Origin: an uncultured Verrucomicrobiota bacterium
GTDB lineage: Bacteria > Verrucomicrobiota > Verrucomicrobiia > Limisphaerales > UBA1412
Length of the DNA: 64,000 bases
Reading direction: 5' to 3'
Assembly: GCA_944389455.1 (NCBI GenBank)
Contig: CALXMK010000005.1
Location: forward strand, 3,483 to 67,482
Of the stretch, positions 19,878 to 56,093 are shown piece by piece (positions within the stretch are counted from its first letter, which is position 1; each line of letters starts with the position of its first letter). A program made the position numbers and the translations under genes. The notes beneath the pieces are model-generated. The model did not search any database. It saw nothing but the letters and a program-made list of their open reading frames with translations, and was not told the origin of the DNA.

Positions 19878-20735
19878 CTACTGTTTCTTTGAAAAAGGTA
19901 TAACAATACAATTGTAATTATTATCCGTTTGACGACGCTGTTCATTCAGCCTGGAAGAAGTATACTGCTGGACAGATCCATCACCTAAAGTTACGTTACC
20001 ATTCTCCTGGTGAATACTGGTCGTCCAATTAGCTTTCTGCGTAGCTGTGGTATTGTTTGGATCATTGGTTGACAACACCAGAATGAAGGACGTCGTCATA
20101 TTGTAAATCTGATTGCTTGTGTTGCCAGTAACAACATTACGATCACCAAAAAGGAATGTCTGAGGAGATGTCTCATTGGCATCAAGCCCGACAAAATAAG
20201 ATAAATAATACTTATTAGACGCATCCGCAGGCTTCGAATAAAAATCAATAAAGCTATCCATTCCACTGGTGTTAACATCCGGATCCGAAGGACAACGAAT
20301 CAGTTTGACATCAGCCAACTCATTAGACATTACCGCATAGTGCAACCATTGTCCATTCATACCAGGAATTGTAAGCTTCTGATTGGCATTCGTCGGATTA
20401 GGAATATTTGTTGCACTATCACCTGTTACAGCTTGAACACGGGGCTGACCGGCAGATGAAGAGTGTGCCGAGGAGTGTGCATTGCTAACTACATCACTGC
20501 TGCCACCTTCGCTCGCCGCAACCTGCCAAGGAAACCGATCTTCATGATCCAAAGCATAGGTACGAGTACCCAACCCCATCTGTTTCAGATTGCCGGTACA
20601 AGAAATACGTTGAGCTTTCGCTTTGGCTTTAGCCAGAGCCGGCAGGAGCATACCCGCCAGAATAGCGATAATTGCGATCACAACCAAAAGCTCGATCAGT
20701 GTGAACGCTTTCTTCATTGTTGTTTGCTTTTTCAT
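19878..20735 (-). CDS. Prepilin-type N-terminal cleavage/methylation protein, H-X9-DG family (type II secretion/pseudopilin-like)
   Basis: [34 protein letters not shown] is a class III signal sequence. A C-terminal [12 protein letters not shown] fits the H-X9-DG motif. Start chosen at the ATG at 20735 (20717 is also possible); the ORF's upstream 33 codons look non-coding. Confidence 0.8.
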
Positions 20736-20896
20736 AGTCTTAGTTATATATATAAACTTCGTTCGCGGCGAATATTGGCACTCACCACCAACTTTGACGT
20801 AAGGGATTTTAATACTGCTTTCACCCATTGTCAAAAAAAAATTTCAAATCAAAATATAACATCCTGTATTTAAGCAGGATACAAATAAAAACAAAA

Positions 20897-21463
20897 TCAA
20901 TTATCAGATAATCTATGCGGCGAATAAGAAATAAGACTGTAATTTCCTCCTAATTTGCGCATTTTCTTCTTCCATAAATTGTGGTTATCCGATTCAAAAA
21001 TCTCTTTCTTGCTAGCCGAAGAAACTATCCATATACTCCGCTCCAACTCTTCTTCCAACTGCCCAGCACTCCATCCAGCATAACCTAAATAAAAGGTTAG
21101 ATTCTCCTCCTCAATCCCTTCTTCTTGATTAAAAATCTCATTCAAACTTCCTGTCACATTTATCTCCCCTATATTTTTGACAACATCTTCCGAACTTAAT
21201 TTTATCTCTGTCAGACAAAAAATTGTCTTAGTACCGATAGGTCCTCCCACTTTTACTTGCATATCACTAAATTTATCCGGAACCAGCTCTCCCAGTAATT
21301 CGCTAAGAGTAAATGAAGCTTCTTGATAATTCAGGACAAATCCCCATGCTCCTTCCGAATCATGATGACAAATCAAAACCGCGGTTTGATTAAAAAAAGA
21401 ACCATCTAGAATTCCGGAATCGAGTAATATTCTTCCTTCTAAAGAAATAAATTTTTTCTTCAT
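20897..21463 (-). CDS. yqgE: YqgE/AlgH family protein (UPF0301)
   Basis: The pattern LLDSGILDGSFFNQTAVLICHHDSEGAWGFVLN ... GGPI ... GYAGWSAGQLEEEL..S.W matches the family. Its ATG overlaps the ftsZ stop (ATGA at 21460-21463). Confidence 0.85.
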   Translation of the reverse strand: MKKKFISLEGRILLDSGILDGSFFNQTAVLICHHDSEGAWGFVLNYQEASFTLSELLGELVPDKFSDMQVKVGGPIGTKTIFCLTEIKLSSEDVVKNIGEINVTGSLNEIFNQEEGIEEENLTFYLGYAGWSAGQLEEELERSIWIVSSASKKEIFESDNHNLWKKKMRKLGGNYSLISYSPHRLSDN

Positions 21464-22842
21464 CGCTCAGCTCCAATATTTTTTATTTTATAGCCAACTC
21501 TCTGATATGTGGGAACATCCAAACAAATAGATCTTCCTTTTTTATAAAAAAAGGTCCTAGAACAATCCCTAAAACGCTCTCCAGGCAAAACACCTGAACC
21601 GTCTTTGAGAAACCTCTCTCCCTGCAAATCCAAAATCCCCTGGTTGGGATCTTGAACACTCTTAGAAGTTCTCCTTTTTGTAAGAGTTTTTCTAACTTCT
21701 TTTACTCCTTCTTCAAATAAATTGGGCAGCTCCGGAGGAGCTGGATTTTGTCCCATCGGAGGCTGTTTAATCTTCTCTTCATCTTCTCCTAATACTCCTG
21801 GCAAAATGCCATTCTTATATAAACTTCTATGGGAGGTTATTCTTTCTTCAGTCTGTTTTTTTGCCTCGGAAAAAGTACAAATTAAAATAGCAGATATCTC
21901 TCCATTTAAACCTTGATTCTGAAGGCTAACTCCCATTATTAATTTTGCGGCCGGATTAGCACAAGCGAGATACTCTTTAAGCATCTCTACCTCTTTATAA
22001 TTCAAGTCATTCTCTCCTCTTATAAACAATAAAAAATGCCGTGCTAAGCTAATAGCATTTTGCTCCTTAATCCAAGGATGAGATACCAATTTTTTCCAAA
22101 GTAATTCTATTCGATTAACTCCTTCTGCAGAAGCGGTAGCAAAGCAAATCGGAGTAAAAGAGTCTCCCCGGCCAAAGTTTTTCCATAACAATCCCAAATC
22201 CAGCGAAATCATACTTGGAAGATAAAGTCCAGCACAGAAACCATGAATTAATTGAACTATCTGCTGATTGACTAAATCAAAAATCTTGGTAAAAATGGCA
22301 TCTTCCTCCTTCATGATTTGGCTAGCTAACTGCTGATTAGAAATTACAAAGACAAGATTCGCTTCAGGCAAAACATCATCTAGTGTTCCTTTGGCATCCA
22401 GAGAACACCCTTCCATCTCAAAAGGAGCTATGCCTAATACCACAGTAAAAACTCCTAAATCAGCAGCCAAAGCTAAAATCCGAGGCGCCATTCCTGCTCC
22501 TAATCCACCGGCCAAACCTATAACTAAAAATAAAATCTCCCGTCCCATCAACAATTCCTTCAATCTCTCTTCCTCTGCCAACGCAACTCTCACTCCAACC
22601 CCTCTTCTCCTGCCGGTACCAATTCCATGGGCAATATTGGGAGCTAATAATAATTTTTCACATTCCTTTATCGGTTCTAAGTTTCTGCTGTCAACATCCA
22701 GCACGATGCAATCAACCTCTCTCATTGGATTCTCAACCAATTTCGCCACACAAAAAACTCCCGCGCCGCCCACGCCCATTACTAAAGCAGAGCTTCTTTC
22801 TAAAAATCCATTATCTGTCTTTGCCGGCTGATTGCTAATCAC
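21460..22842 (-). CDS. ftsZ: Highly divergent FtsZ-like cell division protein
   Basis: It occupies the position after ftsQ-ftsA. Collinear matches to FtsZ are GVGGAG (T1), GIGTGRRRGVG (T3), GLAGGLGAGMAP (T4), PFEMEG, ISLDLGLL (T7) and C-terminal LDVPTYQR. Several GTP-contact residues are substituted (see findings). Confidence 0.75.
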   Translation of the reverse strand: MISNQPAKTDNGFLERSSALVMGVGGAGVFCVAKLVENPMREVDCIVLDVDSRNLEPIKECEKLLLAPNIAHGIGTGRRRGVGVRVALAEEERLKELLMGREILFLVIGLAGGLGAGMAPRILALAADLGVFTVVLGIAPFEMEGCSLDAKGTLDDVLPEANLVFVISNQQLASQIMKEEDAIFTKIFDLVNQQIVQLIHGFCAGLYLPSMISLDLGLLWKNFGRGDSFTPICFATASAEGVNRIELLWKKLVSHPWIKEQNAISLARHFLLFIRGENDLNYKEVEMLKEYLACANPAAKLIMGVSLQNQGLNGEISAILICTFSEAKKQTEERITSHRSLYKNGILPGVLGEDEEKIKQPPMGQNPAPPELPNLFEEGVKEVRKTLTKRRTSKSVQDPNQGILDLQGERFLKDGSGVLPGERFRDCSRTFFYKKGRSICLDVPTYQRVGYKIKNIGAER

Positions 22843-22985: not shown

Positions 22986-24257
22986 TCAATGTGTTTGCAA
23001 TGTATGCATTATACCAAAATAAGCTAATCCGAAAGCTGTAGCAAACTCAGGTTTTTCCCACGATTCCGATTCATTAGGATCACTCTTAGCATTAAGCCTC
23101 CTAAATATAGGATTCATTCGAAACGAAACATATCGGACCCCAAATACACTCGATGCCAATTCATTAATCAATGGAATATGTGCTCCTCCCCCGCAAATGG
23201 TTACACTTTGATTGGAATTAAGCCTTAAATTCCTCATTTCCAATAAATCTTTCACTACCTCAAATACCTCTTTAAGTCTCAACTCCATAACCATCTGCAT
23301 ATTATCCGCAGGAATAACATACTCTTTTCCCTTCACTCTGTGTCTAAAACTAGCTCCCTTAGCTTCCGGATCATGAATAGCTCGTCCATACTGTCGCTTG
23401 ATTACCTCCGCTGTCCCTAAAGGGATGTTAAACGCAATGGCTAAATCATTACTGACATGATCTCCCCCAACACGCAGAACCCCCGCATCACGGATAATTC
23501 CTCTTTCATAAAAAACATACTCTGTTGTTCCTGCACCCAAATCAATAATTAACCCACCCGGAGATTCCTCGTTATCCATTAGCATCAAAGCGGAAGCATA
23601 CCCCGAAAAACAGACAAAAGGCTCCAATCTCATATTAGCAATCATCCCCTGTATCGCATTTACTTTCAAAGAATCCACATATACAACGTTTCTGCTTGTA
23701 ACAAGTGTAAATCCAATCTTTCCTACAGGAGAATCAAGACTTAAAAGGGTTCCGTCCAGCTGATACTCCTGTTGAAAAAAATGCAGAATTCTCTTATCTT
23801 CAGAAAATCTTAAATTTTGCAAGTTAAACTTAGCATTTCTCTCATCAATATCAGTAACAACTCCTTCAGAATTATTTATAGGCTGGATTGCCTTCTGCAG
23901 AGTACACTTTACACCAGAACCTGTAATTCCTACATAGACTCGTTCCAATGTTGCATCTGCCATTTTTTCAGCCTCACTAAATGCCTCCCTCAGTTCTCCT
24001 TCTACTTGGCTCAAATTGATGATATCTCCTTTGCGTACTGCAGTAGAACGCCATTGTCCGATACCAATAATTTCTGGTATTTCATGACCATCCTTAGAAA
24101 ATGTAGCCACTGCTACTGTAATCTTGGATGTTCCAATATCAATCCCCGCTATGTAACGAGATGATTTAAAAAGCCTAAATTTCTCAATCCCGCATTGTAT
24201 TTTTTTAAACACGCCTCCTAAAACAGATTGAGAGGCTTGTAGCGAATCTTTAAACAT
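22986..24257 (-). CDS. ftsA: Cell division protein FtsA
   Basis: The actin-like ATPase motifs AGIDIGTSKITVAV and IIDLGAGTTE are present, and the gene sits in the dcw position between ftsQ and ftsZ. Confidence 0.9.
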   Translation of the reverse strand: MFKDSLQASQSVLGGVFKKIQCGIEKFRLFKSSRYIAGIDIGTSKITVAVATFSKDGHEIPEIIGIGQWRSTAVRKGDIINLSQVEGELREAFSEAEKMADATLERVYVGITGSGVKCTLQKAIQPINNSEGVVTDIDERNAKFNLQNLRFSEDKRILHFFQQEYQLDGTLLSLDSPVGKIGFTLVTSRNVVYVDSLKVNAIQGMIANMRLEPFVCFSGYASALMLMDNEESPGGLIIDLGAGTTEYVFYERGIIRDAGVLRVGGDHVSNDLAIAFNIPLGTAEVIKRQYGRAIHDPEAKGASFRHRVKGKEYVIPADNMQMVMELRLKEVFEVVKDLLEMRNLRLNSNQSVTICGGGAHIPLINELASSVFGVRYVSFRMNPIFRRLNAKSDPNESESWEKPEFATAFGLAYFGIMHTLQTH

Positions 24258-24288: not shown

Positions 24289-25233
24289 TTAAGGCGAAGA
24301 TAACCTCTCTCCAGTTTGTACTGAAGTAAACCAGGTCACTGGAACATTATTACTTACAGAAAGATCTATCCTGCCAATGTTTAAATTATGATCCATTCCA
24401 TAACGATAAATCTTCTCCCAACGGGCTAAACCCAGCTCCAGCTCTTCAGGATCTAAAATTATCTCCATTTGAGAAACCGTTTTGGCAATTAAAAAACCAC
24501 TGTTGCCAATATCTATCTCAACCAGCGCCTCTAAATCTGAAAAAAACAGTTTTTTATAGAGTTTCATAAACTTAAGCACATTAAGTACTTCTCTATTCTT
24601 ACACTGCTCTCCAGCAATCCTCATGTTTTTATTGTACACTCCCACTAACATTGGCAAAGAGCTTAACTCTATATCACTCATACAGCAAAAATAATCATCA
24701 GGAGCTATAACATAGCCGTCTTCATCCAGAAAGCAAACTTCCCAATTACCATCTGTTAAAGTATCCGTATTCAATACCCAACGATAAAAACGAATCACTG
24801 GGGTACGAGCATAAACCTGAATACGAAGCGTATCAGGTAATCCTCTCTCAAAAGAAGCGCTCTCAATTACGGAAACATGCTCTAACTTTCGCTTCATTCT
24901 GTTTAAATCCAACGCCATTAAGTTATCCCTATAAACCTGAATCCCCAAAAAATCTAATACCGATTCTTTATTTACTTGACCAAAAGATAACAGCTCCACT
25001 TGGCGGAGCGTAAACATCTTATTGGTATAAAGGGTCTTCTCTAAAATCAGATTTAGAGTATTTTGTCCCAAAAAATAAACACTCAGAACAATACCAATCA
25101 GTGTAACACACCAAAGACCACTCCAAAAATAACTCCGGATGTGCCTCCGCCTTATTAAAATCCGTATCTCCTCCTCCGGTGAAAGAATCGGCTTTTGAAC
25201 TTGCGGCTGCTGAGCTTTATTTTTCCAGAACAT
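24289..25233 (-). CDS. ftsQ: Cell division protein FtsQ (POTRA domain)
   Basis: It has an N-terminal cytoplasmic stretch, a single TM helix (FWSGLWCVTLIGIVLSVYFLG) and a POTRA-like region (F.LRQVEL.S.GQV.KESVLDFLGI....NL..LDL......LE....IESA...R.LPDTL.I.V..R). The dcw position also fits. Confidence 0.8.
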   Translation of the reverse strand: MFWKNKAQQPQVQKPILSPEEEIRILIRRRHIRSYFWSGLWCVTLIGIVLSVYFLGQNTLNLILEKTLYTNKMFTLRQVELLSFGQVNKESVLDFLGIQVYRDNLMALDLNRMKRKLEHVSVIESASFERGLPDTLRIQVYARTPVIRFYRWVLNTDTLTDGNWEVCFLDEDGYVIAPDDYFCCMSDIELSSLPMLVGVYNKNMRIAGEQCKNREVLNVLKFMKLYKKLFFSDLEALVEIDIGNSGFLIAKTVSQMEIILDPEELELGLARWEKIYRYGMDHNLNIGRIDLSVSNNVPVTWFTSVQTGERLSSP

Positions 25234-25245
25234 AATACAATTAGA

Positions 25246-27105
25246 TCAACTTGTTACCGTAGAATGTTTGAGAGCCAACTCCACCATTTTACTGCATAAA
25301 TCCTCATAATTAAGTCCAGCTGCTGCCGCCGCTTTAGGAAGCAAACTGGTAGTACTCATGCCAGGCAATGTATTTATCTCCAATACCCAACATTGTCCTT
25401 CCCGATCCAAAATCATATCTACTCGAGCATAATCTCTGGCTCCTACTGCGTAAAAAGTTTTAAGTGCTGCCTCTTGAACTTTCATCGTCAAAATATCACT
25501 GATCTTTGCCGGACAAATATACTCCGTAGCACCTGAAGTATATTTACTCTTATAATCGTAAATACCGGACTTGGGCCGTAATTCAACCAGTGGCAGAGCC
25601 TCACCATTCAGAATACTTGCCGTCAATTCCCTTCCTGAAATCTTATCTTCCATTAACGCTTGGCTACCATACTTAAGAACTTCACGAACGGCATTAAAAA
25701 AATCCTCTTCTCGTTCAACCACCTGTAAACCGACACTCGATCCCTCTCTGAGAGGTTTCAAAATAACCGGCAGTCGCCATCCCTCCGGCAACTGGTCCAT
25801 CTCTTTATCAATCAGCATCGCCTTTGGCATTTTGACCCCTAAAGCCTCACAGTGTTTTCTGGTAAGCAGCTTATCGAATCCGATTCGACTGGCCTCAGCT
25901 CCGCTGCCAGTATAGGGAATTCCCAACCGATCAAGCTCACTCTGAACTTGGCCATCCTCCCCATATGTACCATGAAGAGCTAAAAAAACGACCTCTGTTC
26001 CCAACGGTAAACTCCATCCCTCAGTAGGATCTGGATCTAACTCTTTGACTTGATAACCCGCGTTTCGCAATGCCTCTGCAACTAAACGGCCTGAATTAAG
26101 AGAAACTTCACGTTCTCTTGAAATTCCACCCCGAAAAACTGTTACAAGCGGTTTAGGCTTCTCCTGAGGTTTATCTTCTCCAATAATCATGATCTCCGTT
26201 TCCAAATCGATTCCACGCTCCTGTTTTACCCGATTCTTAATCTTGTCCATCAATTCCAGTAAATCATTCGCACTGGCATCATTTTTATTTATTAAAAAAT
26301 TCCCATGTTGCTCAGATACTTTAGCTCCTCCTACAGTCATTCCTTTAAGTCCTAATTGATCAATTAATTTTCCCGCAGAAATCTCAGGAGGATTCTTAAA
26401 CGTACAACCTGCACTTGCGGAATGAGCCTGGGTTTGCTGTCGGTAATCCCTAAAACGCTTCATCTTGGCAGAGATTTCATCCTCATCAGCTTTATAAACC
26501 TTAAGTTCGGCTTTCAAAATAATATAACCTTCCATCGAAGGACAAGAACGATACCCATGGCTCAGCTCCGAAGGAAGGAAAGTCCGAATATTTCCTCGCA
26601 TATCCATCGCGCTAACCGACTCCAAAACATCGAAGAGACACACTTTATAAGCCCCAGCGTTCATGCGGATAGCTCCCCCCAAAGAACCTGGAATTCCCTC
26701 AACAAATTCTACTCCTCCTACCCCCCTGCTTTGGGCATAAATAGCAATATTCCGCAAACGAGCTCCGGCTCCGGCCTCAATCAATAATCCTCTGTCTTTA
26801 AGCTCAATTTTACTGAAAACTGAATTCTTCAATCCTAGAACCACTCCGCGAATACCACCATCTTTAACTAATAAATTAGATCCATTTCCAATAGTAAAAA
26901 CTGAAACTCCTCGCTTAGTACAAAAATCCAAGATTATTCTCAACTCCTGAATTCCTACAGGTTCAATATATAAATCTGCTGGGCCACCGATCTTGAGAGT
27001 CGTCAAATGCTTCATAAGGTAATTCTCTCTGCACAAGGTCTTCTTAGAAAGCAATTGTTTCAGATCCTCTCTCCAATCAAGTTCCTCCTTAGAATATATA
27101 ATCAT
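25246..27105 (-). CDS. murB-ddl: Fusion protein: UDP-N-acetylenolpyruvoylglucosamine reductase (MurB) / D-alanine--D-alanine ligase (Ddl)
   Basis: Residues 1 to about 305 are MurB-like (LKHLTTLKIGGPADLY..P....EL......C..RGV.VFTIGNGSNLLV.D.GIRGVV). After a KPQEKPKP linker, residues about 320-619 are Ddl-like (V.VFRGGISREREVSLNSG, LHGTYGEDGQVQ..L...GIPYTGSG, EINTLPGM). It is a single uninterrupted ORF. Confidence 0.9.
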   Translation of the reverse strand: MIIYSKEELDWREDLKQLLSKKTLCRENYLMKHLTTLKIGGPADLYIEPVGIQELRIILDFCTKRGVSVFTIGNGSNLLVKDGGIRGVVLGLKNSVFSKIELKDRGLLIEAGAGARLRNIAIYAQSRGVGGVEFVEGIPGSLGGAIRMNAGAYKVCLFDVLESVSAMDMRGNIRTFLPSELSHGYRSCPSMEGYIILKAELKVYKADEDEISAKMKRFRDYRQQTQAHSASAGCTFKNPPEISAGKLIDQLGLKGMTVGGAKVSEQHGNFLINKNDASANDLLELMDKIKNRVKQERGIDLETEIMIIGEDKPQEKPKPLVTVFRGGISREREVSLNSGRLVAEALRNAGYQVKELDPDPTEGWSLPLGTEVVFLALHGTYGEDGQVQSELDRLGIPYTGSGAEASRIGFDKLLTRKHCEALGVKMPKAMLIDKEMDQLPEGWRLPVILKPLREGSSVGLQVVEREEDFFNAVREVLKYGSQALMEDKISGRELTASILNGEALPLVELRPKSGIYDYKSKYTSGATEYICPAKISDILTMKVQEAALKTFYAVGARDYARVDMILDREGQCWVLEINTLPGMSTTSLLPKAAAAAGLNYEDLCSKMVELALKHSTVTS

Positions 27106-31187: not shown

Positions 31188-32162
31188 CTAAAGCTGATTG
31201 ACTGTTGTGGTATTTGTCAATGCATCTATCGAAGGAAAAGCATTTGGATTTACAACTTCTCCCGTACCATTTGATGGGGCTTCTGGCGGCAACACATTCG
31301 GAGCCTGAGGGTTTACTGCAGGCGTCACAGATGTTTGCGTATTACTTCCACCTGTTTTTTCAGACTCAGTAGGAATCACAAGAACTTGGCCCACTCGAAT
31401 AACATCACCAGAAAGATTATTTGCTGACTTGAGTGCAGCGATTGTCACACCAAATTTACGAGCAATACGGGTTAGATTATCTCCAGGAATTACCTTATAG
31501 GTACTTTGATTGACAGACTGGTTTACCGTTGCGATAGATGGCACTGCTGTCTGATGAACAGAAGGAGCCGGAATAACCAGTTCTTGCCCTATTTTTAACC
31601 TCAACGGATTTACATCCGGATTAGCAGCCTGAATATCGGCTGCACTGACACCATTGTACTTCTTGGAAATAGAATAAAAACTCTCATTGGGTTGGACTTT
31701 GTGAAGAGTCGTCTGTTGCGAAGAAGCAGCAGAGGATATAGTTTGTGCCGGTACTGATGGATTTGCTATCGGAGCCGTTGGCACAGTAGGTGATATCGTA
31801 GGATTAGACACTCCCTGAACAGGCATCTGCGGAATAGCAGAAGTCACTTCTGAGGAGGGAGATGGAATAGACAAAGCATTAGTAATATTAAGATTTGTAC
31901 TAACAATAGGTCCTTCCGAAAAAGGAGGTAAACTTCCTGGAGGCATATTATCATCTGTTTCTGTTGGCAAAGAAGCTGGCTCAGGAAAATCCGTTTTAGG
32001 CTCTTCTTTTTTACAACCTTGGATTAATAATCCGCCTACAATAACGGCATGCAATGCCAAAATAACAAACACGGCAACAGGCCATTTGGATTTACGTCCC
32101 GCTTGCTGCTGGAAGCGAGACCCTTGGGGTATAATTGGATTTTGATTATTCTGGATACTCAT
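31188..32162 (-). CDS. Membrane-anchored protein with Pro/Ser-rich linker and two LysM domains
   Basis: It has an N-terminal cytoplasmic segment, a TM helix (WPVAVFVILALHAVIVGGLLI) and a low-complexity P/S/T-rich spacer. LysM repeats are HKVQPNESFYSISKKYNGVSAADIQAANPDVNPLRLKIGQELVIP and YKVIPGDNLTRIARKFGVTIAALKSANNLSGDVIRVGQVLVIP. Confidence 0.85.
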   Translation of the reverse strand: MSIQNNQNPIIPQGSRFQQQAGRKSKWPVAVFVILALHAVIVGGLLIQGCKKEEPKTDFPEPASLPTETDDNMPPGSLPPFSEGPIVSTNLNITNALSIPSPSSEVTSAIPQMPVQGVSNPTISPTVPTAPIANPSVPAQTISSAASSQQTTLHKVQPNESFYSISKKYNGVSAADIQAANPDVNPLRLKIGQELVIPAPSVHQTAVPSIATVNQSVNQSTYKVIPGDNLTRIARKFGVTIAALKSANNLSGDVIRVGQVLVIPTESEKTGGSNTQTSVTPAVNPQAPNVLPPEAPSNGTGEVVNPNAFPSIDALTNTTTVNQL

Positions 32163-47920: not shown

Positions 47921-48170
47921 CGAGTATGAGTGAAGAAATACTTCGCTTCCACTAGGAACAGAACACTATTATATTTCAGACCTATTCAATAAATTCAGAG
48001 ATATTTCGATTTTACCGCAGAAAATCAATAATTATTCTCATTTCCACTACAAAATAGAAAAAATAACGAGAAATAGATTCTGCTGTTCTAAATAACTTTA
48101 TATATAAAATAATGCTGTAAGATTATTTATAATAGCATTTTACAACACTCAATTCTAAAGTAAATACTTA

Positions 48171-50999
48171 TTATTCTATGACTTTTATAGAAATTTCATT
48201 TCCATCATAAACACATGTTCTTTCTATAATGTTTTGATTTGAAATAATACGGATTTTGAAAATTCTCTTACCATCCAATGAAGAGTTATAATTTATTTTT
48301 TCTCGATCAATTGTCAATATAGAATTAGCATCATCCCATTTTAAAATAATTATTGAATATTGTCCATTTTCATAGCCATAGCTATTCCCATCATCATCGT
48401 ACAATCTAAAACAACCATCTCTTCCGGCATAAATATTCAAAGTAATTGATTCCGATCTGTTTTCATCCATGTATTGTTTTATTTCTCCCATCGGAAGTAT
48501 GGAACCTGCCTTTACAAATATAGGTATTATTTGTAAAGGTGCTAATGCTTCTATTTTCTCACCTCCACAATATATTTTATTATTCCAAAAATCATACCAT
48601 TCACAACCCTCTGGTAAATATACTTATCTAGACTGGACTTCTGACTCTAGAACAGGGCACACCATTAAGGAAGGGCCAAACATGTATTGGTCATAGATAG
48701 AATGCACATTCTTATCGAATCGAAAATCAAATAATAACGGCCTCATTATAGTATAATCATCATGGTATGCCATTCCTGCCAAAGAATATATATAAGGAGA
48801 AAGCTGATAACGCAATTCAACAAATTTCTTCTGAATGAGATAAGATTCCTCTCCCATCAACCACATTTCTCTTCGAGGACCATTACCATGCGCCCGCATG
48901 ATAGGACAAAATGCTCCCCACTGAAACCAACGAGTGTATAATTCTCGATAGCCAGGATCCTGATTTAATAAAGGCCAGTCAACAGAATTCACAAAAAAAC
49001 CTCCAATATCTGTCGTCCAATAAGGCAATCCTGAGGCGGCAAAATTCAAACCACATTTTAGTTGCTTTTTGAAAACTTCCCATGTCCCCGTAATATCACC
49101 AGTCCACATCACTGTCCCATAAGACTGTTGTCCTGCAAATGCTGATCTTGTAAGGATTAGAACGCGGTTATCAGGATCGCACTGACGTTGCCCTTCGTAT
49201 ATTCCTTTTGTTTGCATCAAAGAAAATGCATTCAGATATCGAGCTCCTGTTCCTAAGTTATTTTGCATTACTTCTTTATACAAAAAAGGATCCGCAGGGG
49301 TAGAAATTTCCGGTTCTGAAGCATCTAGCCACCAAGCGTCCACTCCTTTATCATATAAGCACTCCTTCATTTGCTTCCAATAAACTTCTCTGCCCTCTTT
49401 TGAAAAAGGATTATAATACCAAGTTCCTTTATCCGTCCAAAAACTACAATTATTATAACGGAAGAGCAATCCTCTATCAAAAAGTTCTTTCCAATTATCA
49501 CTGCCACGTTGAAACATTCCCCAAACAGAAATCATATAATGAATATGTTTTTTGTGTGCTTCTTCAATCATCCCCTCAGGATCTGGATAACGAAGTTCGT
49601 CAAAATGATGAGACCCCCAAGGATAATTTCCCCAATACCCTAAATCTTGTACAAGCACATCTATTGGAATCCTGCGTTTACGAAATTCATCAATTAATGC
49701 CAAATATTCTTTTTGCGTATTAATTCCAATATGAGAATGCCAATAACCATAAGCCCAGCGAGGCAATATAGATGCCTTGCCCGTTAATTTGCGATATCCG
49801 CTGATTACCTTATCCAGCTCTGGACCATAGATAAAATAATAATCAACCATGTCGCCTACTTCTGACCACATAGTTATACCATCATAACTCTCCGTTGCCG
49901 GCGGACTCCATCTCAATTGAACAGCTCCATTATTAGGATCGTGCAATTTATCATCTACATCTTTCTGCCATTCATAACGAATCTTGTAACGAGTATTTGC
50001 CTCTAAATTAATTTTTCCATTTAAATACAAATCAGTAGTATTATAGCCATCTATAATTAAAGTATTATTAATCCATAATCTAATCTTATGAGTAGTAAAG
50101 GCATTAAATGTATATATATCAGCATGTAATGTTTTAACTTCTCCTTCCCAACGAACTGTAAATTTGCCCGGATTAATACGACTGTCCAATGGTTTTGAAA
50201 CCCAATTGGGATCTATTGTAAAAGAATTATCTATCTGAGGGCCAAAAGTCTTGAAGTCAAAATTTATCACTGAATCTCGACGAATCTTACATAATTCCTC
50301 AAAATTTGTCCCATTATAATATGAGCCTGTTAAAGCTCCCTGTACTCCATCTTTATCATATAATAAATCTGAAGGAATAAAATCTTGGGTTACGGGAAAA
50401 CCAAAACGAGAGTGAGAATAATTATCCCATAAAACACCATATCCTCTGTTTGATAAAAAGAAAGGAACTACAATTTCCCAATTCTCCTGCCATAAATCAA
50501 TATCAGAACCTTTTAGATTATATAAATTGTTCTGATGATGTCCCAATCCATGAATAACTTCATCATCTGTACTTACCCATTGTTGTCTAATATTCCAAGT
50601 CTTTTCATCACAAACAATGTCAGGTGTTATTTTTGTTCCATTTTCACGTTCCTCCAGTAATATTTTGCCATATATATCCTTGAAAACAACTTTACCATTT
50701 TCACGTTCTACAGAAACAATCAATTGTGAAGTCTTCACTTGTAATACATTTTCATCTTCTATTATATCAAATTCAGGAGTATTAACTGATTTCTGTATAA
50801 CTAAACTTTTTCGATCAGAAAATGTATTAATCGGAGATGTTATCACTCTGACTATATCATCACTAATCACCTGCAACTTAACTTTTCCTTTTTGAGTCTC
50901 CAATGAAATTCCATCATTCAAACAGACATATTCATGCTGAGATGCAGCTAAACAAGTTGTAGCCCCTAATAATGCCAATAAAAATTTTACTAAATTCAT
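48171..50999 (-). pseudogene. GH31 glycoside hydrolase (alpha-xylosidase/alpha-glucosidase-like, with PA14 insert) interrupted by one in-frame TAA
   Basis: The 791-aa ORF carries a signal peptide, a PA14-like insert (GALTGSYYNGTNFEE...FTVRWEGEV...YTF), the GH31 nucleophile region (DAWWLDASEPE) and the acid/base region (WTGDITGTW). The same frame continues after the TAA at 48624-48626 as VYLPEG.EWYDFWNN...IPIFVKAGSILPMGE... into the 106-aa ORF, which is the GH31 C-terminal beta-sandwich. Confidence 0.8.
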
Positions 51000-51068
51000 A
51001 TCATTATATTTATAAAAATTTTTTCTCTTTAAAAGAATATATTGTCATATTTTCAAATTTATTACTTA

Positions 51069-53278
51069 TTAATTTAACAATCTAAGATTGTATTTTCCTC
51101 CTCTCTGTGTTTCTATATAATAAATACCATTTTCATCAGGTCTTATCATTGCTTTATGCCCCATAGCATCAGTTATCTCTATCGTAGAAGTCCAGCCTGA
51201 TACTTTAAAAGCACAGGCTTGCCCTTGTTCACTTGTTATACTCACTCTATATGATTTTCCATTCTTTCGTTCGGCACTAACTAAAAAAGCTCCTTGTGTT
51301 CTAAAATTTTTAAAGCAAACATCCTTCCATTTATCCGGAACTGCTGGAAATACCTGAATAATATCATTCCAGCTTTGCAGCAACATATAATTTATCGACT
51401 CTACTGCCGATAATGGAGTTTCAATCACCTGTCCACCCCCTTCCTTATACATTGTATTGGGTGTCAATTTTTGATCATACAGAAGATCTAACGTTTCCAG
51501 CGCATCATTCCCTTGTCCTAAGGTTGCTAACATAGCACATCCTCCCGTATATGTATATCCAGCATGGCCTGACTTCTTAGTCAAAGTAAGCCAGTGATTT
51601 ACAGATTTCTCTATCAGAGCTCTTTCCTGCGAATCATAGGGAGAAAGCAAGTGATAAGGATAAACTGCAAGCAAATGAGAATAATGGCGATGTCCCATTT
51701 CAAAACCCTGATCACGACTAATACGCAAACCATTCTTATCTTGAGGATAATCCGATAAATTCGAAAGAGTTTTACGCCAGACAAAAGCCTGAGCATCATT
51801 AAAACCAAAATATTCATTCATATCCAACAAGGACTGTAACACCCATTTAGCAGACATTAACGCGTAATTTGCATTCCAATATAATTCCTCAGTATACTCT
51901 GGAGAACGTGATAAAACCATCTCCAACTTCCCATCATCATTTTTTTCCATCTTGCTCAATAAAAATTGAGCACTCTCCTTCAGCATTGGAAATAATTTTC
52001 TACCATAGGTATCGTCCCCCGAATATTTCCAGTACTTCCAATAACAATGCAACAACCAAGGCATATTACCAAATTCATCTCCCCAAGTTGATTTTCCTTC
52101 GTAAGTAGAAGAGCGGCCTACAGTAATACCATCTGAACCTTGAGCGTTTTCATGAAATGCTCCACTATCAAATAACCGATTCATCCCATTTATAAAAGAT
52201 TTACCAACTTTTAACTTATTCGAACTATACATTGGCATATAAGACAGCTGCACATTCAAATTCCACCAAATAGCCGCCCAAGCACTTTCACAAATCCAAG
52301 GGCCTTGTGTATCCATAATCAAGTCGCTTTCTTCGGAAGAGGCACAAGCAAACTTATATAATTGTATCCACCAGAAACGCTGCCACTTAATATCTTGAGG
52401 CAACTCCAATGAAGACTCCTGATAGTATCGATGCCACCAATCACGATTCGTTTTCCGTAAATCTTCATAACAAACAGCAGAAGAAAGTCTTATTCTTGAA
52501 ATTGCTTCTTGTGTAGCTTCATCCACTGCCGCATTCATATCTCGATTATCACTAGTACCGATGGCCACATAAAGTAACTGCTTTTTCCCCTCTATAATTC
52601 TCTTTGAGACTACGGTATGTGCTCCCCTAGTCTTCATACGATTAACAATAATATTCATTCCATCCAATTGCTTTATTTCAGGATGCGGCGGCAAATACTC
52701 AGCATAATCAGCTGGATTCTTCTTCTCTAAATAAATCCGAGGAGTAATTCCCCATTCTGGACATACATCTAAAAAGGCTTTTCTTCCCCAGAAGCCAATA
52801 AAGAAACAATAAACACCTTATTCTTGCGATCCGACATTAGAGTCCATTCAAATTTTCCTTTCACAGTATTAACAGAACCATTAATTTCTCCATTCCAGAG
52901 ATCTAGTTTCATCCTCTCTTGTTTTGTATCCCCTTTTGGTGTAATTACTATCGAACCAGCATAAACTCTTGAATTGCAATACTCCCATTGAGGGATTGAA
53001 TAATGAGCTATCGCTTTATAATGGCCTAGAAGCATACGTAAACTATCCGAGTTATCTTTATCACGCATTACCATAGCCCCTTGCAATCCATCCCCTAAAA
53101 ACGCTCCATCATAAAAACTCGATGGGAAAGAGTCATTCCACTCTAATGCAGCATCTTCTACAAGATTTTGTGTTTCTTCAAATTTCTGTTCTGCATATCC
53201 AATGCAAACTTTAAAAAATGAAATAATTATCAAACTTAATAATAAGTAATATTTTTTCATAAACATAATTTTATTCAA
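51069..53278 (-). pseudogene. Secreted (alpha/alpha)6-type glycoside hydrolase, GH95-like, split by a 1-nt frameshift
   Basis: The 169-aa ORF (signal peptide plus N-terminal beta-domain, ...FLGDGLQGAMV...) ends at a TAG at 52769-52771. The reading frame of the 541-aa ORF is already open upstream of its annotated TTG start (…FLDVCPEWGITPRIYLEKKNPADYAEYLPPHPE…). Adding one base to the A5/T5 run at 52771-52775 joins both into about 736 aa. The family call is tentative, based on a DTQGPW....W..WWNLNVQLSYMP pattern reminiscent of GH95. Confidence 0.65.
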
Positions 53279-53326
53279 CTATTAAAATACTAATATTTTT
53301 ATATTCTAATTACATAGAGCTTCCTA

Positions 53327-53866
53327 TTATATATAAATATGTATATAAAGCCATTTTTCCTCGCATTGTCTGCTAGTTTTTTCAGCATATATCAGCGATT
53401 GGCAGAAATGATAATTTTCACTCATCACACTTTTAAACTCTTCTACCATTCTAGGATAATCTTTAATATCCGTGCTTCCCAATATACGAGAACCTTCCGA
53501 AACCTCAATCATCACTCCACTTTTTATCTTGAAAGTACCTGTCACATAATCTCCTTTTGAAAAAAGAACTACTCCACCTCCAGATTCTGAGCATGTATCT
53601 ATTGCTCTCTGAACAGCCATTGTATTTTTTGTTTGTCCATCACCTTTAGCTCCAAAACATTCTACCTTAAAAATCTGCTCAGGAACTTTCCAAGGAAGCA
53701 GATTTCTTTCTAAATTATCAGTAATTTGTTCTAATCTCTGCTTCATTGGTTGACACCACTCCACATCTTGGGCTATGGCTGTAGGAATATATAACAGAAT
53801 TATTATAACATAATTAATATAAATAGTCAAATATTGTTTCATTACTCTATTTTTTTGTATTATCAT
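53327..53866 (-). pseudogene. N-terminal fragment of a GH28/pectate-lyase-fold (right-handed beta-helix) glycosidase
   Basis: A signal/TM segment is followed by F.VECFGAKGDGQTKNTMAVQRAIDTCSESGGGVVLFSKGDYVTGTFKIKSGVMIEV, the typical start of GH28-like beta-helix enzymes. The ORF stops after 179 aa, against roughly 450 aa expected, and the next gene starts 48 nt later. Confidence 0.55.
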
Positions 53867-53888
53867 ATAATTTTTTAATCAAATCCTC

Positions 53889-53922
53889 TTGTTATTTATT
53901 ATCAATTGTTATTTATTATCAA
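53889..53922. repeat. Perfect 17-bp tandem duplication (TTGTTATTTATTATCAA x2)
   Basis: Read directly: 53889-53905 is identical to 53906-53922, 23 nt upstream of the GH28-like fragment start. Confidence 0.9.
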
Positions 53923-54119
53923 ATAAACTCCTTAGGTTAGATTGATGAATCTAAAAACCTAAATTATTCTAAAAATCCTATTTCTAAATTAGGAAATTCG
54001 AAATAAGAAATTGAAAGAATTATTTTATACTAAATACACCCTAGCTTAAATAGTTTATTTAAATATAGTGGATATTAATAAATTCAATCACTAGTGTCCA
54101 CTAAAAATTAGCATGCAAG

Positions 54120-54539: not shown

Positions 54540-56093
54540 CTATTTTTTTAAACGAGTTTTAATCATCTCTATGGCTTGTGTTACCTGAGGAAACCGCAAG
54601 CTATACGCTCCCACTAAATAAGAAAGACTTGCCACTCCCGCCGGAATAAATACTCCTCCTAATTTACTCAATAGATTCTCATGTCCAAAATACCGATCCC
54701 AAAAATCATAACCCAACCATGCAATAAGTCCTGTTATTCCTGCAAGCATCAGCATTTTCCCACCACTAATTAATAGTGGCCAATAATCCAACTTACTCAG
54801 AACTCTCTTCAAAGCCATTCCCAGCAAGACCATGTTAAGTAAAGAAGTCAGTGTATTAGCTACTCCTAACCCTGCCTGGCGAAAACGAAATACCAACAGC
54901 AGAGAAATAACAAGATTAATTCCCAGACAAAGAATACCAATTTTAGCCGGAGTCTTAGTATCTCCTAATGCGAAAAATGCCCTTGATAATAAATTGACAG
55001 AACCAAAAAAGACTAATCCCGGAGCCAAACAAATAAGTGCTAGTGCGGAACGCTGCGTAGCCACTTCACTAAAAGCCCCTCTTTCAAAAAGTAATCGTAT
55101 AATCGGCTCCGCCAGAACAACCAATAATGCCATTGCCAACATATTGATAAAAGCCAGATAGCTTAATCCGTCCAGCAATGTTTTACGAAATTCCACATAT
55201 TGTTTTTTACCGGCCAAGGCTGACAAAGCCGGCAACATCCATGTAGCTAATGAAATTGCAAAAACCCCCTGCGGTAACTCCATCAACCGAACCGCATAAT
55301 CAAACGAGGCTACCACATAATCTGCAATAAAAAATGAAAAAAAGCTAATTAGAAGCACATTAATCTGAAATGCAGCCACTCCCAATGTACTAGGAATCAT
55401 TTTATAAACAACCTCTTTCACAGTGGAATCCTTAAAAGGATTAACCCAATGGAAACGAAATCCCTGCTTATAAAGAAGAGGAGTGACAAAACTGCTCTGT
55501 GCTAATCCTGCAACCAGAACAGCATAAGCTAACGCATAAATTTGCTCTGGCAAAGTTTCTCCTATCAGAGGGGCAACACAGAGGACACTTGCAATTGCTA
55601 CAACATTAAGCATGGTCGCACTCAGAGCTGGAATAAAAAAGTAACCACGCGCGTTCGCCATGCCTATCAAAACTGCCGCTATACAAACCAGCAGCATATA
55701 TGGGAACATCACCCTCAGTAAACTGAACATCAACCAGGTATCGGGAGAAAGCTCAACAAATTGCAAAACAACACTTACACCCAGCAACACTACAGCAACT
55801 ATTGCTCCTGAAGCTATCAAAAGGCCACATAAAACCGCGTTTGCCGCTTTCCACGCACTTTCTTCTCCCTCCAGTAGCTCTTTATTTTTAAAAATTGGAA
55901 TGAACGCACCCGTCAATGCTCCTTCTCCCAGTAAGCGACGGAATAGATTAGGTATCTGAAAAGCTACTTTAAACGCACTGGCCACTGCCGTATCTCCCAT
56001 AAATGCGGCATAAACCATCTCTCGAACCATCCCCAACACCCGGCTCAACATTGTGGCTCCCGCCATCGCGCCGGAGGACTTAAGCATTCCCAT
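54540..56093 (-). CDS. murJ: Lipid II flippase MurJ (MviN)
   Basis: ATMLSRVLGMVREMVYAAFMGDTAVASAFKVAFQIPNLFRRLLGEGALTGAFIPIF is the hallmark MurJ N-terminus. The protein is polytopic and 517 aa long. Confidence 0.9.
   Translation of the reverse strand: MGMLKSSGAMAGATMLSRVLGMVREMVYAAFMGDTAVASAFKVAFQIPNLFRRLLGEGALTGAFIPIFKNKELLEGEESAWKAANAVLCGLLIASGAIVAVVLLGVSVVLQFVELSPDTWLMFSLLRVMFPYMLLVCIAAVLIGMANARGYFFIPALSATMLNVVAIASVLCVAPLIGETLPEQIYALAYAVLVAGLAQSSFVTPLLYKQGFRFHWVNPFKDSTVKEVVYKMIPSTLGVAAFQINVLLISFFSFFIADYVVASFDYAVRLMELPQGVFAISLATWMLPALSALAGKKQYVEFRKTLLDGLSYLAFINMLAMALLVVLAEPIIRLLFERGAFSEVATQRSALALICLAPGLVFFGSVNLLSRAFFALGDTKTPAKIGILCLGINLVISLLLVFRFRQAGLGVANTLTSLLNMVLLGMALKRVLSKLDYWPLLISGGKMLMLAGITGLIAWLGYDFWDRYFGHENLLSKLGGVFIPAGVASLSYLVGAYSLRFPQVTQAIEMIKTRLKK

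Follow-up and report, generated by a model that had tools for sequence, protein, structure and literature searches.

In model bacteria, septal wall synthesis is currently seen as organised by the treadmilling of FtsZ, which GTP hydrolysis powers. In filament structures of Staphylococcus aureus FtsZ, T109 (T108 in the Escherichia coli numbering used below unless S. aureus is named) hydrogen-bonds the gamma-phosphate mimic, D210 (D209) swings and positions the catalytic water, and D213 (D212) together with N208 (N207) shapes the site and the interface, with assembly being suppressed in all of the mutants D46A, R143Q, N208L, D210N and D213N (PMC8936486). E. coli FtsZ T108A has a GTPase activity described as “almost zero” and still forms rings on membranes, without treadmilling and with hardly any subunit exchange (PMC5979038). 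Published work treats verrucomicrobial FtsZ as “canonical”, if divergent, the Verrucomicrobium spinosum protein having GGGTGSG (PMC1845146), and ranks the group as the most divergent among bacterial FtsZs (PMC9871819); in V. spinosum the protein is essential (PMC12283558). Here, we analyse the ftsZ-like gene at 21460-22842 of a 64-kb stretch of contig CALXMK010000005.1 from an uncultured Verrucomicrobiota bacterium (the window). From comparison with its relatives we propose, with moderate confidence, that it encodes the functional, orthologous FtsZ of the divisome in a small Limisphaerales lineage that evolves fast, with a remodelled active site that would bind nucleotide but hydrolyse it little or not at all, in a protein that would be tethered to FtsA. 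The gene has descended vertically in its slot of the division and cell wall (dcw) cluster, keeps the FtsZ fold and the tail, and is under purifying selection that is strongest in the nucleotide-binding domain.

The open reading frame (ORF) is an FtsZ homologue with the FtsZ fold. Its product passes the Pfam Tubulin model (PF00091; 61 bits against a cutoff of 33), stays under the cutoff for FtsZ_C (PF12327; 19 bits against 27), and scores 118 bits (E = 4.5e-34) with TIGR00065, whose equivalog cutoff of 295.2 it does not reach. In HMMER/phmmer comparisons with PDB chains it aligns collinearly and over its full length with solved FtsZs, and no closer match to TubZ than to FtsZ was found among the PDB chains searched with phmmer (E of ~0.01 for TubZ chains vs 1e-29 for FtsZ); in the core it is 23% identical to E. 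coli FtsZ. The AlphaFold2 model, computed from a 120-sequence alignment, predicts residues 18-330 with a per-residue confidence (predicted local distance difference test, pLDDT) above 90. In Foldseek, this model is superposed on the Mycobacterium tuberculosis, Pseudomonas aeruginosa, E. coli and Bacillus subtilis FtsZs with a template modelling (TM) score of ~0.9 and a root mean square deviation of ~2 Å; more than 50 FtsZ structures were matched by the model, and its top matches are FtsZ throughout. Thus, the FtsZ fold assigned by an earlier, sequence-only reading of the window is borne out, as is its statement that the gene occupies the canonical ftsZ slot beside ftsA (ftsQ-ftsA-ftsZ). An AGGGG box lying 8 nt upstream supports the start of the gene, as do homologues that open “MI(E/S)...”. 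Neither by sequence nor by structure does the protein come closer to the other tubulin-superfamily families (TubZ, CetZ, FtsZl1/FtsZl2) than to FtsZ, and its C-terminal domain and tail set it apart from FtsZl1.

To place the motifs, we used phmmer against the B. subtilis and Aquifex FtsZ PDB chains, a five-member family alignment, and a MAFFT alignment of ~250 sequences anchored on E. coli FtsZ, the anchor having been checked at 17 landmark residues. The three alignments are independent and agree on the register: in both phmmer and MAFFT, GGAGVFCV falls on GGGGGNAV, GLAGGLGAG on GMGGGTGTG, and SLDLGLL on NVDFADV. The manual register of the sequence-only reading was therefore correct, with a shifted alignment ruled out, and the four strings that it quoted (GVGGAGVF, AGGLGAG, ISLDLGLL and LDVPTYQR) each occur once at verified coordinates (Table 1). 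As that reading had it, both threonines of the tubulin signature are lost and its first glycine has become alanine (the G105 position being that of the ftsZ84 allele), and the equivalent of D212 in T7 is leucine. N207 of T7 is lost as well. The N-x-D-x-x-D pattern of T7 (N207, D209, D212) is thereby replaced by S-L-D-L-G-L, with D209 as the sole survivor. The altered T1 string is present, but its G21A change (GGAG in T1) is seen in ~73% of the sampled relatives, a sample skewed towards the query, and so is nothing special; T2 carries N43D and Q47R. Retained in the window protein are G20, G22, D45, G69, G71, G106, G107, G109, G111, E138, N165, F182, N186 and D209. Canonical FtsZ (E. coli, B. 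subtilis, S. aureus) thus shares with it the fold, the slot after ftsA, the core-linker-tail layout and the glycine loops, but has GGGTG[ST]G, N-x-D-F-A-D and R142 where the window protein has AGGLGAG, S-L-D-L-G-L and a deletion of R142. E. coli D187 was considered as a further lost guanine contact and dropped, as the D187 of S. aureus and B. subtilis aligns with E. coli N186, which is an invariant asparagine in the clade described next.

A word-indexed search returned a 99% identical cluster as its sole match. Searching 1.84 billion representatives exhaustively with HMMER added three full-length proteins at 32-35% identity (P0009, P0010, P0011) and one at 30% (P0013), followed by generic FtsZ only. 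A family profile separates its members, at more than 600 bits, from the proteins that rank next, ordinary “Pedosphaera/Verrucomicrobia FtsZ”, which reach at most 288 bits. A genome scan with the N-terminal pattern of the clade returned nothing, and a single-protein scan remote FtsZs only. Retrieval anchored on Ddl yielded 80 verrucomicrobial dcw loci, 65 of them with ordinary FtsZ, and included two reference metagenome-assembled genomes (MAGs) that carry the divergent type, UBA1412 (L094, DBPU01) and RGIG7594 (L150, JAFZAR01). Clade members are also present in GCA_045642825.1 and in the MAG of HQC43132.1. Six further lineages emerged from the HMMER search and the Ddl-anchored loci, ruling out an orphan or singleton. 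Seven Limisphaerales lineages in all thus share the pattern of L/I/V/M at position 108, A/G/S in place of T110, LD[LIM]GxL in T7, and the tail D-[VIT]-P-T-[YF]-x-R. Chance is excluded, since seven independent lineages have all conserved these substituted states.

Four contacts (T108, T110, N207 and D212) are lost in 7/7 lineages. Those retained in the clade are G20, G22, D45, G69, G71, G107, G109, E138, N165, F/Y182, N186 and D209, with R142 retained in six of the seven. The G-x-G-G-A-G of T1 is invariant across the clade, position 74 is arginine in 4/7 members, and the RRR tail of T3 and the absence of R142 are found in the window protein alone. With TIGR00065, ordinary Limisphaerales FtsZs score 256-322 bits and the clade 94-168 bits; in the core, the clade shares 19-29% identity with E. 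coli FtsZ, and ordinary members share 31-42%. One clade member is named “hypothetical protein” by NCBI and FtsZ by JGI. Two shorter database proteins probably reflect gene calls at contig ends, or chimeras, rather than real variants: P0008 (213 aa) matches residues 1-196 of the window FtsZ at 94% and diverges thereafter, and in P0002 (303 aa) an unrelated N-terminus, which gives MatE-type Pfam matches, is followed by FtsZ residues 281-460.

The sequence-only reading called the motifs degenerate. This description does not hold, since the changed motifs are conserved across the clade and the pocket loops are its most constrained part, so that the site is better described as remodelled than as decayed. 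Of the 41 core positions that are invariant in the clade, 23 lie within the 68 pocket and T-loop positions (odds ratio 6.2, p = 3e-7), and positions that are conserved but switched include K14L, V98L, L126F, F210L, A211G and C286N. The ORF is full length in the 15 and 14 listed variants of two species clusters; among 15 strain variants, the nucleotide-binding domain has one variable site in 188 residues, and elsewhere in the protein 4-5% of sites vary. Strain-level loci of ~98.5% DNA identity to the window give a ratio of non-synonymous to synonymous polymorphism (pN/pS) of 0.14-0.17 for the ftsZ-like gene (5-6 synonymous and 3 non-synonymous changes), with neighbouring genes ranging from 0.04 (murG) to 0.42. 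By these comparisons, the pocket and T7 are the most constrained parts of the clade FtsZ, and they carry new residues.

FtsZ is nonetheless the fastest-evolving dcw protein of the clade, with 31% identity between members, as against 42% for FtsA and FtsQ and 55-65% for MurC, MurG, FtsW and Ddl. With Ddl divergence as a clock, clade-to-ordinary FtsZ identity is 26.9%, as against 38.6 +/- 4.6% between ordinary FtsZs whose Ddl divergence is the same; within the clade, pairs that involve the window protein show 32-36%, vs ~45-50% expected, and other pairs show 41-49%, near the norm for the order. These comparisons point to two evolutionary bursts, on the clade stem and then on the window lineage, with constraint between them.

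Ordinary verrucomicrobial FtsZ (the V. spinosum “VerFtsZ” and those of Pedosphaera and Limisphaerales) resembles the clade in phylum, in its extended C-terminal block (…GRF-x-x-SE-x-T…DLDVPTY-x-RRG), and in the G21A of T1. It has GGGTG[ST]G or GGGAGSG, whereas the clade combines a hydrophobic residue at 108 with the loss of N207 and D212 and an algH gene in the operon. Among the sampled PVC-type FtsZs (PVC being the Planctomycetes-Verrucomicrobia-Chlamydiae superphylum), 37 have a perfect GGGTG[ST]G and a DLDVPTYxRRG tail and lack the D212 equivalent, as in GLINLDFATLR or GLIRVDFAHLS (P0236-P0252, P0157, P0158, P0016 and P0028 are among them). About 25 more Limisphaerales FtsZs read GGGAGSG in T4 (T108A) and GLIQIHFDDL in T7 (N207Q and D209H, with D212 retained); examples are L007:7240-8514, which at 256 bits is under the TIGR00065 cutoff, L102, L104, L139, L154 and L161. 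On this evidence, the divergent clade is the extreme end of a gradient of catalytic-residue losses in PVC FtsZs. A literature search found no report of this clade, nor of signature or catalytic residue loss in verrucomicrobial FtsZ, with Pilhofer 2008 (PMC2347405) lying outside that search. What is already on record is only the general divergence of verrucomicrobial FtsZ.

The genomic setting is that of a division gene. In the window, the dcw order is mraZ, mraW, ftsI, murE, murF, mraY, murD, a LysM gene, ftsW, murG, murC, murB-ddl, ftsQ, ftsA and ftsZ; the ftsZ slot is the same in L091, L093, L094 and L150, and all clade members with DNA have the order ...murC, murB-ddl, ftsQ, ftsA, ftsZ. The tail, which in the clade reads D-[VIT]-P-T-[YF]-x-R, is predicted to dock to FtsA. 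An FtsA-type peptide has been kept, as the sequence-only reading had it, although not at the extreme C-terminus where it was placed: 12 residues follow LDVPTYQR, as is usual in PVC FtsZ tails. The pre-tail block upstream of it reads Q-L-x-L ... GRF-x-x-S/C-E-x-T in ordinary verrucomicrobial FtsZ. PVC lineages without ftsZ have lost ftsA too (PMC12283558). Since here the FtsA-type tail and ftsA are both intact, with ftsA under purifying selection, the FtsZ-FtsA module appears to be still in use. The 3' end of ftsZ overlaps with or touches a DUF179/AlgH (YqgE-family) gene in the window, L094:9300-9882, L150:5504-6086 and L091:11316-11892, an adjacency found in 4/5 clade lineages with DNA and in 0/65 ordinary verrucomicrobial dcw loci. 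Promoter and terminator scans stayed at background level, except for a hairpin after algH, and Rfam gave no RNA features in the window.

Table 1. Positions in the window of the ftsZ-like gene, its domains and motifs, and the adjoining genes (aa, residues of the product; substitutions in E. coli numbering).
Feature	Position	Strand	Details
ftsZ-like gene	21460..22842	(-)	460 aa, GTG start; TGA stop overlaps algH start
Nucleotide-binding (N-terminal) domain, aa 18-205	22228..22791	(-)	pLDDT >90
T1 loop GVGGAGVF, aa 23-30	22753..22776	(-)	G21A, N24F
T3 loop GIGTGRRRGVG	22594..22626	(-)	GxGxG glycines retained; tri-arginine tail replaces ANPEVG
T4 “tubulin signature” AGGLGAG, aa 111-117	22492..22512	(-)	G105A, T108L, T110A; departs from GGGTG[ST]G
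PFEMEGCS	22402..22425	(-)	Ribose-contact E138 retained; R142 gone via 2-aa deletion, this lineage only
T5 (ISNQQ) and H7 (IFDLVNQ)	22264..22344	(-)	Base/ribose contacts N165, F182, N186 retained
T7 synergy loop ISLDLGLL, aa 212-219	22186..22209	(-)	N207S, F210L, A211G, D212L; D209 retained
C-terminal (GTPase-activating) globular domain, aa 206-330	21853..22227	(-)	Under Pfam FtsZ_C threshold; confidently folded in model
Disordered linker, aa 331-396	21655..21852	(-)	pLDDT <50
PVC-type pre-tail block (DPNQGILDL ... GERFRDCSRTF)	21550..21651	(-)	Counterpart in ordinary verrucomicrobial FtsZ
FtsA-type docking peptide LDVPTYQR, aa 441-448	21499..21522	(-)	D, P, T, R invariant in clade
algH/yqgE (DUF179)	20897..21463	(-)	ATGA overlap with ftsZ-like gene, translationally coupled
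ftsA	22986..24257	(-)	Directly upstream of ftsZ-like gene; TIGR01174 224 bits, cutoff 176 passed; pN/pS ~0.09
ftsQ	24289..25233	(-)	POTRA_1

How might an FtsZ with such a site work? Guanine nucleotide would still be bound by the clade protein, because the glycine loops of T1, T3 and T4, whose backbones cradle the phosphates, along with E138, N165, F/Y182 and N186, which hold the ribose and base, are clade-invariant. It would probably be hydrolysed very slowly or not at all, because T108, the contact of the gamma-phosphate, is replaced by Leu, Ile, Val or Met, T110 is lost, and N207 and D212 of T7, with which the active site is completed across the filament interface, have given way to small or hydrophobic residues. 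The sequence-only reading likewise expected altered or lost GTPase chemistry, and the published mutants make loss or a strong drop the most likely outcome. The LD[LIM]GxL loop of T7 would then be mainly structural, forming a more hydrophobic longitudinal contact, and the FtsA-anchored filaments would make up a static or slowly exchanging scaffold rather than a GTP-driven treadmill, with filament turnover, if any, supplied by other factors. The lineage may thus divide with a non-treadmilling Z-ring.

The T7 lysine of beta-tubulin and the FtsZ-like domain of chloroplast ARC3 are tubulin-fold precedents in which support of hydrolysis is gone and a structural or regulatory role is kept. Neither is an exact parallel: beta-tubulin pairs with a catalytic alpha-tubulin, whereas no partner is known for the clade FtsZ, and ARC3 is a chimeric inhibitor rather than a ring former, whereas the clade protein keeps the full FtsZ architecture and the genomic slot. 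The engineered mutants (E. coli T108A and D212 alleles, and S. aureus N208L, D210N and D213N) are altered at the same positions as the clade, and the GTP-dependent static rings of E. coli T108A are the behaviour proposed here for the clade FtsZ. The mutants are, however, single laboratory changes that are inactive in complementation (cited in PMC8936486), whereas the clade carries a natural, selected set of 4-9 changes.

Several points weigh against our proposal. S. aureus N208L and D213N abolish assembly instead of freezing filaments (PMC8936486), and the formation of filaments in the clade, which the sequence-only reading took for granted, would require compensating changes. D209 (the water-positioning aspartate) and D45 are retained, as is R142 in 6/7 lineages, so that some hydrolysis is possible. 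D212 or T108 is missing from many ordinary PVC FtsZs too; either these residues are less indispensable in the PVC superphylum, or the phenomenon is wider than the clade. The pN/pS ratio rests on just 8-9 substitutions, and the input alignment of the AlphaFold2 model consisted mostly of ordinary FtsZs. A second, canonical ftsZ may also lie elsewhere in the genome, the search having covered the 64-kb window and +-10 kb around the ftsZ of relatives.

A further-reaching form of the proposal holds that in these bacteria, whose peptidoglycan and divisome genes form a full set, a single, naturally hydrolysis-dead FtsZ acts as a static FtsA-anchored scaffold without GTP-driven treadmilling, that it marks a PVC intermediate on the way towards FtsZ independence, and that its turnover falls to another system, possibly DUF179/AlgH with an AAA+ protease; we consider this somewhat unlikely. 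In E. coli, the dormancy induced by YqgE depends on Lon (PMC11634777), and plastid DUF179 proteins interact with ClpC1 (PMC8889267), but a role of DUF179/AlgH in the turnover of a hydrolysis-dead FtsZ would be speculative. Also unlikely, in our judgement, is an ordinary, catalytically competent FtsZ with an unusual spelling of its motifs, in which D209, D45, R142 and lineage-specific compensations such as the arginines in the tail of T3 rescue hydrolysis and treadmilling is near normal. The clade-invariant D209, D45, E138, N165 and N186, the pocket being the most conserved region, the arginine at position 74 in 4/7 members, and the ordinary, presumably functional PVC FtsZs that often lack D212 or T108 singly would all fit such a protein. 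Yet T108A alone removes nearly all GTPase activity in E. coli, and the clade residue is bulkier (L/I/V/M) and accompanied by the loss of T110, N207 and D212, with no acidic or polar substitute anywhere in LD[LIM]GxL; the window protein also lacks R142 and has G105A. Decay of the gene, or an annotation or assembly artefact, is an explanation to which we give almost no credence. It could draw on this being the fastest-evolving dcw protein (31% identity vs 42-65% for its neighbours) and on the score under the equivalog cutoff, but an ORF that is intact in dozens of independent assemblies, a pN/pS of ~0.15, the pattern among strain variants, a confident fold, and motifs conserved across seven lineages effectively rule out a pseudogene or artefact.

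The remaining explanations concern what the protein assembles with. The clade protein could be paired, as a non-catalytic subunit, with a canonical FtsZ from a second gene at another place in the genome, in a heteropolymer that hydrolyses GTP at alternate interfaces only, as with beta-tubulin, whose non-catalytic T7 lysine faces the N-site of alpha-tubulin, or with plant FtsZ1/FtsZ2. A T7 that is conserved yet non-catalytic, as in beta-tubulin, agrees with this arrangement. We find it improbable. The gene sits in the single ancestral dcw slot beside ftsA, and its product has the FtsA tail. With tblastn, neither the 64-kb window nor the +-10 kb around ftsZ in 69 related loci gave a further tubulin-fold gene. 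A partner should keep one canonical pocket, whereas here T4 and T7 are both altered in one protein. Alternatively, the protein could have ceased to polymerise, acting as a monomeric or oligomeric FtsA-binding adaptor or regulator, with septation carried out by FtsA together with FtsQ/FtsW/FtsI, as a step towards the FtsZ-less Planctomycetes and Chlamydiae. Chloroplast ARC3, which is derived from FtsZ and is not a GTPase, offers a comparison. The failure of S. aureus N208L and D213N to assemble (PMC8936486), the bursts on the clade stem and the window lineage, and the loss of ftsZ in two phyla of the superphylum are in keeping with such an adaptor. It is nevertheless quite improbable: T7 and the top-face loops are conserved in the clade, as a maintained subunit interface predicts, the glycine loops would need no conservation if the pocket were unused, and ftsA has been retained, unlike in lineages that have lost ftsZ.

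As to the host, the sequence-only reading had mentioned Lentisphaerae, but the relatives of UvrA and Ddl place it in Verrucomicrobiota/Limisphaerales. The best UvrA matches are Limisphaerales/Pedosphaera MAGs (JBMNFQ01 at 66%, others at 57% or less), the Ddl relatives are also from Limisphaerales/Verrucomicrobiota, and the genomes with the closest Ddl are those that carry the divergent FtsZ type. A number of typical verrucomicrobial dcw/UvrA contigs (L007, L020, L027, L100, L105, L116, L098 and others) are titled “uncultured Bifidobacteriaceae”, “Klebsiella pneumoniae”, “Akkermansia muciniphila” or “Candidatus Acidoferrum” and look like mislabelled or mis-binned MAG records. The window also encodes glycosidases of families GH31, GH95 and GH123, and the closest reference relative comes from buffalo omasum, which together suggest that the host is a gut or rumen glycan degrader. 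At ~48000-54000, the GC content drops to 33-35% (vs ~41%) over a stretch with GH31 (with PA14), GH95 and a pectate-lyase-like fragment, perhaps a glycan-utilisation island that was acquired; MurJ is encoded beyond it, at 54540-56093. Within the dcw cluster, murB and ddl are fused (619 aa, 25246-27105, (-) strand), as in strain loci L003 and L004, and are separate genes in L091 and L007; the Mur chimera types described in PMC10214165 do not include MurB-Ddl. A LysM-repeat protein lies between murD and ftsW in the window (31188-32162, (-) strand) and in clade member L091 (875-1867). A type IV pilin-like protein encoded immediately downstream of ftsZ-algH (19878-20834, (-) strand) combines N_methyl with DUF1559/SBP_bac_10, a PVC hallmark, and a strong sigma-70-like promoter match (11/12) lies at 20834-20806.

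The residues changed in this clade are exactly those whose mutation inactivates the FtsZ of E. coli and S. aureus, and a selected, dcw-encoded FtsZ without T108, N207 and D212 would surprise specialists. Our findings also bear on genome surveys, as annotation pipelines miss the FtsZs of the clade (NCBI “hypothetical protein”) and such genomes may be recorded as ftsZ-negative in error. If our proposal is true, it would show what FtsZ is capable of without fast hydrolysis in a bacterium that has a cell wall and the whole dcw cluster. In turn, this would offer an entry to the question of FtsZ loss in the PVC superphylum and an experimental handle on how the sister phyla Planctomycetota and Chlamydiota could dispense with FtsZ.

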